Positions 13,182 through 16,687 of a stretch of DNA of 64,000 bases are shown in pieces. The stretch spans positions 1,280,001 through 1,344,000 of the forward strand of contig CBDFGR010000002.1 in assembly GCA_965247115.1 (NCBI GenBank), written 5' to 3'. The stretch comes from Myxococcota bacterium. Lineage in GTDB: Bacteria > Myxococcota_A > UBA9160 > SZUA-336. The notes beneath the pieces are model-generated. The model was not told the DNA's origin, did not search any database, and saw only the letters and a list, made by a program, of their open reading frames with translations. Every line of letters begins with the position of its first letter. Within the stretch, counting starts at the first letter, position 1. The position numbers were made by a program, and so were the translations under genes.

Positions 13182-14150
13182 AGCCTGCACGCGGGCGTCG
13201 GCGTCCCTGCGCGGGACCGCGCGCGCCTCGAGCGACTCTGTCGCTACGTGGCCCGGCCGCCCATCGCCACCGAGCGTCTCTCCGCTCTCCCCGACGGGAA
13301 TCTCTCCTACCGGCTCCGGCACCGCTGGCGCGACGGTACGACCCACGTCGTGTTCGAACCGCTCGAGCTGATCGAGAGGCTGGTAGCCCTGATCCCACCC
13401 CCCCGTGCGCACCAGGTCCGCTACCACGGAGTGCTTGCCCCCTGTGCCGGCTACCGCGATGCGGTCGTTCCCGGCCACCTCTATCCGGCCACCACAACTC
13501 CCGCTGCCGAGAACGCCGCAGCCCTTGCTGCAGAGCCGGCGCGGGACGAGCCACAGCCTGCGGCCCAGGTCCACAGCGACTGTCGCGGCTCAGAAGCACA
13601 CGCGACGGATGCCGGGCGCCCCAACGCGGGTCCACGACGCGCGGAGTCGGCGCCCGAAGGGGCGCCCGTAACCTCCGCGCACGCTGATCCTGCACAGTTC
13701 TCCTTGGCCCGGCCCCTCAGACAGCGACTCCGGTGGGTGGACCTCATGCGTCGCGTCTTCGCGGTCGACGTCCTCGCGTGTCCGCGTTGCGGAGGCCGCA
13801 TGCAGCTCATCGCTGCGATCGAACAGCCGCGCGTCGTCGAGGCAATCCTCCGCTGTTTGGGACTCTCCGCGCGACCTCCACCCATGGCCCCGGCGCGCCC
13901 AATCGGCCAGCCCGTGCTGCCGTACGTCGACGCCCTCTAGAGAGACGATCGTCAGATCCTCGCCCTAGCTCGGCTGCAGAACCGATGCGCGCCGCACGGC
14001 AGCCGTGCGCCTCCGCAGGGCACCGAACGGGCTCAACCCCGGCCGCACTGGCGTACCACCCGCTTAAAGGCCCCGCGCCCCGGCCCTCAGACCAATCGAT
14101 AGGACGGGAAGGGCCATTGTCACAACCCGAAAAACCCTCTTAAACTCCCT
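13182..14150 (+). mobile_element. IS91/ISCR rolling-circle element, 5'-truncated; transposase fragment ends at 13940; putative oriIS end interrupted at 14150
   Basis: LERLCRYVARPP single-Tyr ISCR-type motif, WRDGTTHVVFEPLELIERL, RYHGVLAP, CPRCGGRM. Confidence 0.8.
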
Positions 14151-14359
14151 TCCATAGGGTAGGAGCGCAAGACAGACTTCCCCGATCGCCACAGATTCTT
14201 CGATCCTGGCGTCTGCTCCCGTTGTGGCTAGGCGGTCTCGAGTTGAGAGTTCGTGCTCGTGGTTCCGTCGGAGCAGCGGCGGAGCCTCTACGAGCTGCTC
14301 GGTCTGAGGATTCGTACGAGGGCAACCCCATCGCATCGCGATTCGTTGGCGTGTGTGCT

Positions 14360-14525
14360 CTCCACGGAAACGTGGGAACCATCCTTCCATCTGGGCCTCT
14401 GTCGGCCATCGCTTCGTTTGGTTCTTCGGAGGGGCATAGCTTATCCGTCGGACCTCCAGGCTCTTGGGCCGTCGGCCAGGGAGTTTATGGATGCTCACCT
14501 CCGCGGCCACGCAGAGCGTGGCATG
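14360..14525 (-). ncRNA. Predicted bridge RNA (seekRNA) of the IS1111 element
   Basis: 5' hairpin 14506-14522; target loop with guides at 14478-14487 and 14440-14446 matching the insertion site; donor loop with guide at 14384-14390 matching the element end; RNA ends approximate. Confidence 0.8.
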
Positions 14526-14593
14526 CGAACACTCTTCGCGGCTGTGTACTCGAATGATTGCCTTCTCGTCGACTCTCCCGATCGAGCGGTCGC

Positions 14594-15660
14594 CTAGCCT
14601 TCGCACGTCTCCGTGGGCGGACTGGCTCGTCCGGGGTTGTACTCCTCCTCGTCCTTCCACATCCGTAGCACCGTGGCTGCGATCATGCGGGCCAAGCTGA
14701 GCTTTGCGAGCGTCGGCTTCGTTCCACCATCGAGAAGCCGCTGGTAACGCGCATGGATGGGATCCTTGTTGCGCTGCGTGATCACCGTCGTCGCGGCGCC
14801 CTTGAAGATGCTCTTCAAGACGCGATTGTGCTGGCGGGAGAGCCCTCTCGTCTGAGGAACCCGCGCCTGGATCCAGCTTCCATCGGCCGTCTGGACCCAG
14901 TCCGAGCTCGAGCGGGTCACGATACCCAGCCCGCAGTAGCTCCAGAACTGTCGCTTCGTGCGGAAGCGGTGGGGCGTCACGACAATCGGGACCAGTCGTG
15001 CTGCGCGGATCGGTCCGAGGCCGGGTGCGGTCTCCAGGATCGGGACGATGGGGTGCTTCTTCGCCTCTCGAAGGAGATCGGCCTCTGCCTGCTTCTTCTG
15101 CTCCCACAAGAAGTCGAGATGATCGTAGAGTCTTGTCGCTCTCGTCTGCGCGCTGGAGCAGAGCTGCTTCTGCCACTCGTCGCGGCGACGCGGGCTGTAG
15201 ACATCCAGGCCGGTCACCAGGACACCGCGCGATCGGTACAGGCTCTTGATCCGAGCCTGCACCCGCACGACGTCTCCGACCCCCGTCATGTGGATCCGCG
15301 AGAGCTCGCGCAGGCGCGTGAACTCTCGCGGTGCCTTGAAGACCGGCTTGTCGAGGTTCCCCATGCGCAGCTTCTCGGCCAGGCCATACGCATCGCGCTT
15401 GTCGCTCTTCGAACCCCGGCTCTCCGTGATCCCCGCAACCACGATCTCGTCCACGTGAGGACTCAGCGTCTCGTACAGCCACGCGCTCTGAAGTCCCTCT
15501 TCGAAGACCAGATACTTCCGGCCCGGAATCATGCGGACGGCCTCGACCAGGGCCTGGCCGTTGGTCTCACCGGGAAGTCCTTCAACCGCTTCCCTGTCTG
15601 CGAGATCACCGCCAGCGTGCAGCTCGCGGCGTGGATGTCCATCCCGATGTATCGTTCCAT
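14594..15660 (-). pseudogene. IS110 DEDD recombinase with a 1-nt frameshift near 15568
   Basis: MERYIGMDIH in one frame, then FEEG, KSDKRD, PGLG, FWSYCGL...RSSS in the next; RBS GAGGAGG. Confidence 0.85.
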
Positions 15661-15821
15661 TGGTGCCTCCTCTCGTTGGGTATTGTTGATTTCCCAACTC
15701 GAGGATTCCCGACGGGCTCGGGAGGCACCACCCTCCGCCTCCGGGCTCACGGCTCGCCCTGCAGACGCCATACCCCTATGATGCTTATCCCCATCGACAG
15801 ATTTGGGCAGAGGGGGATCCC

Positions 15822-16687
15822 ATGAAGGTCTGCACCCGAGCGCTCGCTCTCCTCGTCATCGCATTGCCGATGACTCTCCACGCCGCACCGGAGGTCGTGC
15901 AGCTGCAGACGGAGGGGCTGAATGCAATCGAGCTCGAGGCCTTCGACCCCTTTCTCGACTCCGTGGTCCTCTCGGGCGTCAGCGAGTACGCGATTAAGGA
16001 GCTGTACCGCGGTGAGTTCGTAGCCGCATTGTACGAGGCAAAGCCGGCGCTTCTGGACATCATCAGTACGCCGTTCCCGTTGGACGAGTTCGTCTGGGTG
16101 ACGAGCGGCGAACTCATCCTGACCGATGTCGATGGACGCAGCGAGAGCTACGTGGCGGGCGACACCCTGCTCGTTCCCAAGGGCTGGAAGGGCACCTGGG
16201 AGATGCGCGGCAACTATCGCGAGTTCGTCGTGATCGAGACCCGCGCCAACGACAGTGTGGATGGCTTCTGGAAGAACATCGGGCTGATCATCGCGGGTTG
16301 GTTCCGGGATACGCCCCACGTGGTGCCGCTGCCGGCCGAGGAGTTCCGGCGCGCCGAACTGGAGCCCGTGCAGCCCACGTCGGCTGATCTCAAGATGACC
16401 GGCGGCGATCCGGAAGCCTGGAAAGCGGTGGGGAGTTCATCGTAGAGCTGTACGCCAGCCCCGCGGCCGTCGTGCAGATCGACGATCCCTTCCCCTACGA
16501 CGAGTTAGTGTGGATGCTGTCTGGCGAGCTGGTTCTGACGCCGACGGGGGGCGAGGCGGTAACCTACGGCGCGGGTGAGGGCGTGGTGGTGCCCAAGGGA
16601 TTCGTGGGAACCTGGGAGACGCGAGGCGACTACCGCGAGTTGATCATCATCGAGACCCGGGCCATGAATCGGGTCCACGAGGAGTAG
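15822..16687 (+). pseudogene. Secreted tandem cupin (DUF861/EutQ-like) protein, split near 16430
   Basis: Two repeats of PFPxDExVW...SGEL...VPKG..GTWExRGxYRE in different frames. Confidence 0.7.

Follow-up and report, generated by a model that had tools for sequence, protein, structure and literature searches.

RNA-guided recombination in the IS110 family is already known, and an element with a readable bridge RNA is an added member of a known group. Within this family the IS1111 elements are defined by the order of their guides and have ends extended by 7 nt and 3 nt, as described in PMC11187229, and their subterminal repeats are given as 11–13 bp by Siddiquee (PMC11187229) and as 7–17 bp by Durrant. 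The guides of IS621 are reported to pair with the incoming core after strand exchange (PMC13626964), and CazIS110 is described as integrating mainly by the top strand (bioRxiv 2025.10.25.684509). Here we analyse a stretch of 64,000 nucleotides from a Myxococcota bacterium (the window) and an element in it (Table 1) that we consider quite probably to be an IS110-family bridge-RNA transposon with an IS1111-type layout, parasitic on IS91/ISCR-like elements.

Table 1. Positions in the window of the element, its predicted bridge RNA and the interrupted host element.
Feature	Position	Strand	Basis or remark
IS91/ISCR-like HUH transposase 3' fragment (host element)	13248..13940	+	PF04986, E 7e-14
IS91-like 3' end (presumed ori), interrupted 4 nt before its last conserved base	13941..14150	+	
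Left target AAACTCC and target core CT	14142..14150	+	
IS110-family element with IS1111-type ends	14151..15786	-	1636 bp, no target duplication; empty allele and junction analysis
Subterminal inverted repeat, right end, with 3-nt extension beyond	14154..14159	+	
-35-like box TTGCGC (TTGACA in many homologues)	14165..14170	-	Predicted; 17 nt from the -10-like box in the circle
Predicted bridge RNA in the 3' non-coding region, ends predicted	14376..14522	-	Fold, covarying stems, single genome match
Donor-binding loop and stems	14376..14424	-	Fold, covariation
Right donor guide AUGGA, core guide AG, handshake GA	14382..14390	-	5/5 in 58/59 loci
Putative left donor guide ACGAAGC-GAU	14408..14417	-	5/7
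Target-binding loop and stems	14427..14503	-	Fold, covarying stems
Right target guide GGAU (14443-14446), core guide AA (14441-14442), handshake GC (14439-14440)	14439..14446	-	
Left target guide AAACUCC and core guide CU	14478..14486	-	Equals 14142-14150; covaries with flank
5' hairpin, kept in the closest homologues only	14506..14522	-	Fold
DEDD recombinase gene, frameshift near 15568 in the assembly	14594..15660	-	PF01548 and PF02371; 355 aa in close homologues
Subterminal inverted repeat, left end, with 7-nt extension beyond	15774..15779	+	
Left donor ATGATGC and donor core TT	15778..15786	+	
-10-like box of the predicted circle promoter	within 15778..15786	-	
Right target ATCC, last conserved bases of the IS91-like end	15787..15790	+	

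Recombinase, bridge RNA and guides

The recombinase matches both the N-terminal DEDD RuvC domain PF01548 and the C-terminal PF02371, the combination by which the IS110 family is recognized, and residues D8, E54, D87 and D90 are invariant in 23 homologues. About 440 bp of non-coding sequence lie 3' of the gene against about 125 bp 5' of it, and the guide for the top strand precedes that for the bottom strand, both as in IS1111. The serine loop reads GLGIVTRSSS, in which S252 is conserved in at least 90% and the P and G of G--P----SG are absent; the IS1111 motif GL-P----S(t)G is absent from the recombinase. Identity to IS5075, the only named IS1111 member compared, is 21% over 164 aa, and the recombinase profile gives 39.8 bits for IS5075, 41.3 bits for IS621 and 33 bits for ISCro4/IS622. 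The IS1111 assignment made in the earlier note therefore holds for the 3' non-coding region, the guide order and the ends and fails for the protein motif and the similarity to IS5075, the recombinase appearing no closer to IS5075 than to IS621. In a tree with three reference proteins the references stood on very long branches and the clade was not placed, and the family would be a deep-branching one, far from IS621 and IS5075. The NCBIfam model NF033542 scored 116.6 bits on the homologue L008 (cut-off 140), and a single-sequence PDB search gave no match to a bridge recombinase; no relatives of the recombinase were found in the viral contigs searched. The recombinase (window 14597-15562) also scores against the TIGR-Tas model, with E 5e-16, below the cut-off.

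The frameshift pointed out in the earlier note is indeed present in the window, but an extra base was found at full depth in one contig each of runs X1, which may be the window's own source, and X4, which belongs to another study. The X4 contig has only one other difference from the window over 383 bases. With an intact allele known that is nearly identical, the break in the window was probably introduced during assembly.

On the minus strand of the 3' non-coding region the sequences that had been read as guides are found in place (UAAACUCCCU at 14478-14487, GGAUAAG at 14440-14446, AUGGAAG at 14384-14390 and ACGAAGC at 14411-14417), as are the hairpin at 14506-14522 and the closing stems. The minimum-energy structure of 14350-14530 on this strand contains the hairpin and both internal loops at -66.8 kcal/mol, an energy that taken alone is modest (z -1.9; 13 of 200 shuffles are equally good). 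When the region was shuffled 100,000 times preserving dinucleotides, the 10-nt match to the left target arose twice, and for the two matches of 8 nt at the junctions the counts were 320 and 743; all three guide matches never occurred together. The guide matches are far above chance, and the predicted bridge RNA, of which the genome holds this sole copy, is very likely real. Three weak matches were obtained in Rfam, none reaching the gathering score, and the RNA model had no match in three plasmid IS110 loci; the scaffold and the protein motifs were not found in seven supplements of PMC11208160.

Searches of genome contigs gave 147 related stretches, from which 78 loci were recovered, mainly from Myxococcota-like, Gemmatimonadota and Acidobacteriota genomes; the RNA region is present in 71 of them. 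From these loci plus the window, seven without an RNA match and two with a truncated one were left out before counting, junctions were called from end motifs including neither core nor flank, and loci with a junction score below 18 (right end) or below 8 (left end) were excluded. The two-loop scaffold is paired in 97% of the cells of an alignment of 36 sequences, and in 11 of the 24 pairs both partners have changed in a compensatory way, whereas slid-control alignments reach at most 57% pairing. When each distinct guide was represented by a single locus, the left target guide agreed with its flank at 125 of 189 positions (two loci with a shifted loop being excluded from this test), compared to 61.6 ± 7.0 after permutation and a maximum of 98 in 100,000 permutations, and the right target guide matches at 53 of 64 positions, compared to 21.7. 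Within the TT-core clade alone and without the window, the left guide still matches at 65 of 91 positions (39 permuted). The left-guide test is conservative because several AG-core loci, which fit one base off, were scored unshifted. In five AG-core relatives (L031, L033, L041, L046 and L048) the left guide fits the target one base out of register, as though the first core base were unpaired.

The covariation check proposed in the earlier note came out positive, the target guides tracking the insertion flanks. The right donor guide matches the element's own end at five of five positions in 58 of 59 loci, over five variants (p 0.008). In this way the central claim, that an IS110-family element carries a 3' bridge RNA specifying the target and the right donor end, is backed by guide-flank covariation, three of the four guides covarying with target or donor. 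The left donor guide had also been claimed, but it is near-invariant at about 5/7 (5/7 in 49 of 55 loci) and scarcely exceeds permutation (29 vs 26.7), so that this claim is not supported. Such a poor left donor guide could mean that only the target loop matters, used as a seekRNA or in direct site-to-site transfer, with the donor loop a structural remnant and the ends recognized by protein, and short target-only seekRNAs are described as enough for ISEc11 (PMC11187229). We consider this improbable in view of the fit of the right donor guide over its five variants and of the donor-loop stems, which are highly conserved. In the preferred reading, with both loops in use, the donor loop reads the right donor end, as the covariation shows, and recognition of the left donor would be weak and may depend on protein contact with the inverted repeat.

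Element boundaries and the IS91-like target

The earlier note had restored the target as TAAACTCC-CT-TATCC by removing the element at a CT core, and this register is contradicted by several observations. An empty allele in run X4, seen in one contig of depth 4.7 that comes from a different study and matches the locus at 88% likeness, joins 14149 to 15786, skipping 1636 bp and not 1635. In loose ends from runs X1 and X15 the sequence past 14150 starts with ATCC after CT. The window's own genome has nine sites with one T (ACTCCCTATCC) and none with two (ACTCCCTTATCC), and a single T is found in 12 of 12 such ends fetched from one genome of the same genus. Since the empty sites carry one T, the target is AAACTCC-CT-ATCC with core CT and the donor core is TT, and the earlier register was one base off. 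Ordinary CT/CT cores, with target AAACTCC-CT-TATCC and an element of 1635 bp, could still be obtained by reading the right junction one base leftward, which places CT at both junctions and leaves the 7-nt guide fully matched. Apart from the skipped length and the single T, this register has against it that all 21 clade loci agree in the presumed first base of the target although the bases beside it vary, and that the left donor is one base longer in related elements with identical cores. The register is already largely refuted, and we regard it as very improbable. For GGAUAAG, said to pair 7/7 with the right target, sequence and position stand and the composition does not: it has 4 nt for the right target, 2 nt for the donor core and one handshake base.

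The corrected boundary gives the 7-nt left and 3-nt right extensions without target duplication, around a perfect subterminal repeat of only 6–7 bp that is imperfect further out. It also preserves the 17-nt spacing of -35 and -10 boxes seen in relatives with identical cores, an agreement that is partly built in, the right end having been located via the -35 box. On the gene's strand of the linear element no promoter was found. As a first step of the proposed mechanism, the ends would join as a circle, ATGATGC-TT-TCCAT, which is the presumed donor, and so create a -35/17 nt/-10 promoter for both recombinase and RNA. The circle junction was found in none of the metagenome contigs and, apart from viral matches, in none of 129 fetched loci; four viral matches were rejected, all lying in unrelated sequence contexts. 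RNA runs X15 and X17 contained only contigs of relatives, which cover the RNA region as well as the gene and so carry no information on whether a small RNA is made, from which strand or in what amount.

What the element has interrupted, overlooked in the earlier note, appears to be the 3' end of an IS91/ISCR-like element. The host transposase fragment matches the NCBIfam ISCR clade Ia model partially (E 1e-31, below cut-off), and the insertion lies 210 bases past this Y2_Tnp fragment. Fourteen similar ends exist in the genome, six of them carrying the element's right end, and all six right-end junctions of this genome fall within IS91-like ends. In other genomes of the class the motif N7-CT-ATCC was found downstream of the gene in 11 of 27 Y2_Tnp loci, some 190–260 nt after it (in 10 of the 11 about 190–250 past the stop). 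The ori of IS91 elements is located downstream of the gene (PMC5737581), and from its position the targeted end is presumed to be the ori. The exact pattern of the IS91 end gave no match in metagenome contigs and, among 301 genomes, matched only the window's own, being too specific. A literature search covering mostly openly readable papers found none on IS110-family elements that target IS91 ends.

In the second step, as covariation and empty alleles show, the target loop reads the 3' end of an IS91-like element, recognizing on one strand seven variable bases followed by CT and on the opposite strand ATCC. A model of the IS91 end restricted to 20 bases outside the reach of the guides places 11 of 20 TT-core flanks above the 99th percentile and none of 37 others, and the remaining 9 of 20 TT-core flanks are unlike IS91 ends. 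These ends might be hit merely as abundant repeats that happen to fit the guides, with no evolved specialisation. Many relatives do insert elsewhere (L059-L069 in repeats, L013/L014 in what is probably an IS end, and others at off-target sites), and a Y2_Tnp gene adjoins only 2 of the 33 homologous loci tested, 59 of 106 listed flank ORFs having been scanned, so that most targets would be orphan ends. On the other hand, the seven variable bases of the clade's guides shift with variants of the IS91 end while ATCC stays constant, and the independent model is fitted by bases that lie beyond the guide. A role as mere abundant repeats seems to us unlikely, and parasitism on IS91-like elements is the reading that we keep.

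Several derivatives and relatives deserve mention. Locus L002 (G000:C2:2197372-2199109) lies inside an IS91-like end and has a dihydropyrimidinase-like gene placed between 17 bp from the right end of the element and 87 bp from its left end, and is possibly a cargo-carrying, non-autonomous derivative; an empty allele of its site is present in G302 (L159, L161). Half-copies with one end only occur in G000 at C2:823188, 1091796 and 677303 and at C3:1192518, 1212196, 2388109 and 339741, and the copy at C3:1212196, which no longer has the RNA, retains an intact gene joined to a zinc-binding fragment of IS91. One-ended IS91 transposition is a conceivable source of the half-copies. L013 and L014 are close relatives retargeted maybe to an IS3-like left end (a weak Pfam match, E 0.048), and twelve CG-core relative copies (L059-L069, L083), several of them clustered in tandem, lie within a palindromic repeat in one genome. 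An extra AAG separates the element's end from the target at the right-end junctions of L031, L035 and L046, and L030:3514-3613 shows a deletion extending from the right target guide as far as the end of the element, at an apparent microhomology between guide and junction. In the window, a cupin-domain gene (15822-16687) starts 35 bp past the left end of the element and is followed by a short similar-looking ORF.

Unequal cores and strand exchange

The core guide within the right target guide equals the core of the donor-side junction in 55 of 56 loci (AA, AG or CG) and therefore reads the incoming donor core, not that of the target. Both junctions are available in 49 loci and their cores differ in 18. 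In all 18 the core read by the RNA is on the donor-side junction; the reverse was never found, and none of the 49 has TT at the left and CT at the right. Four further left-end junctions also read AA. Two exceptions to the core rule, L024 and the remnant C3:339741, are both decayed and lack the other end. If both strands were exchanged with a 2-nt stagger, the reverse pattern would be left half the time, an expectation reasoned from the IS621 model; the one-sided inheritance of cores at these natural junctions thus favours joining by the top strand only.

The cores could also differ and both strands be exchanged through a Holliday junction, in which case the one-sidedness would be due to mismatch repair with a bias, to cutting of the bottom strand directly opposite the cut in the top strand, or to copies with the other core having been lost. 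IS621 structures are described as supporting a four-strand model in which the host may repair mismatches (PMC11208158), TT stands at both junctions of three loci, and the donor side of one remnant reads CT. Unbiased segregation, however, would give 18 of 18 in one direction with p of about 4 in a million, assuming independent insertions. We therefore hold the four-strand route to be a real but lesser possibility, and top-strand joining remains our preferred reading.

In the third step of the mechanism the top strands would be cut just after the core and then swapped, with a chemistry like that of IS621; the observed pattern is that the target's core is kept at the left junction and the donor's at the right. 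The right target guide makes 6 of 8 pairs with the target before the exchange and 8 of 8 with the exchanged strand, and with both right-hand guides together there are 13 Watson-Crick pairs plus a wobble before and 16 after. The differing cores would in this fourth step give a gain in pairing that may push the reaction forward, something that the handshake bases at position 7 cannot do, since target and donor share C there. A fifth step, suggested by the one-sided inheritance, would most likely be fill-in of the other strand by replication, without its exchange.

The elements with a TT core group together as a single clade (99/100; 6 of 23 tree rows), in which position 7 is common to target and donor in 17 of 18 loci, vs 11 of 30 others. 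As the TT core arose once, this link with position 7 counts as a single evolutionary event. A shared position 7 is said to interfere with handshake pairing (bioRxiv 2025.05.14.653916). Our proposal is that the clade is a natural bridge system evolved to non-matching cores, in which the donor changed from CT to TT, the RNA changed alongside and the core does the job of the handshake; we give this about even chances, and the replacement of the handshake by a core mismatch is what we infer from that one event.

If the proposal is true, the junctions would be a genome-scale record of one-strand-only IS110 integration in native hosts, bridge editors could be used on pairs of sites whose cores are unlike, and methods that take a repeated core as the boundary would misplace such elements by one base. 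Whether one or two strands are exchanged in IS110 is disputed among preprints, and a natural core mismatch, as a built-in strand marker, makes the question testable. The rule, used in design, that the donor must have the same core as the target is likewise called into question. No paper on natural mismatched cores was found in a search of mostly openly readable literature; the surprise is limited by the end description of IS1111 from the Hall laboratory (no duplication, 7+3 extensions), which already allows unequal ends.

Comparison with known systems

ISEc11, ISKpn4, ISPa11 and ISPst6, as described by Siddiquee 2024 (PMC11187229), are like the element in their long 3' non-coding region, in having first the guide complementary to the top strand of the gene, in ends that reach 7 nt (left) and 3 nt (right) past the subterminal repeats, in the lack of duplication, and in natural retargeting among relatives. 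They differ in the perfect repeat (6–7 bp in the window, 11–13 in theirs) and in the serine loop (GLGIVTRSSS vs GL-P----S(t)G), and unlike them the window has a complete second loop, in which the right donor guide covaries. The recombinase profile gives IS5075 only 40 bits.

IS621 and ISCro4/IS622 (PMC11208160, PMC11208158, PMC13626964, bioRxiv 2025.05.14.653916) likewise have two simple internal loops, the same 7-2-4/5 register of left guide, right guide, core and handshake bases, and right guides that fit the incoming core after exchange. In the window, in contrast, an RNA located 3' of the gene reads the opposite strand, and the profile scores of these two are only 41 and 33 bits. IS621 and ISCro4/IS622 are described, and have been programmed, with matching cores, whereas the identical 2-nt core of donor and target in IS621 has no counterpart here, where the natural cores differ (target CT, donor TT). 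The copy-out/paste-in model of CazIS110 (bioRxiv 2025.10.25.684509) and the half-match model of IS621 (bioRxiv 2026.08.31.748434) predict one-sided core inheritance; they come from biochemistry on other elements, while here the evidence consists of natural junction sequences alone.

More than two dozen natural guide-target pairs give the programming rules of this recombinase family, which is aimed at the ends of rolling-circle transposons. Aiming at the conserved end of another mobile element is shared with IS4321/IS5075, which target the inverted repeats of Tn21, and with the attC-targeting IS1111 elements (PMC11187229). Unlike the case of IS4321/IS5075, the host in the window is a rolling-circle, IS91/ISCR-like element, and the insertion lies 4 nt short of the point where conservation of its 3' end stops.
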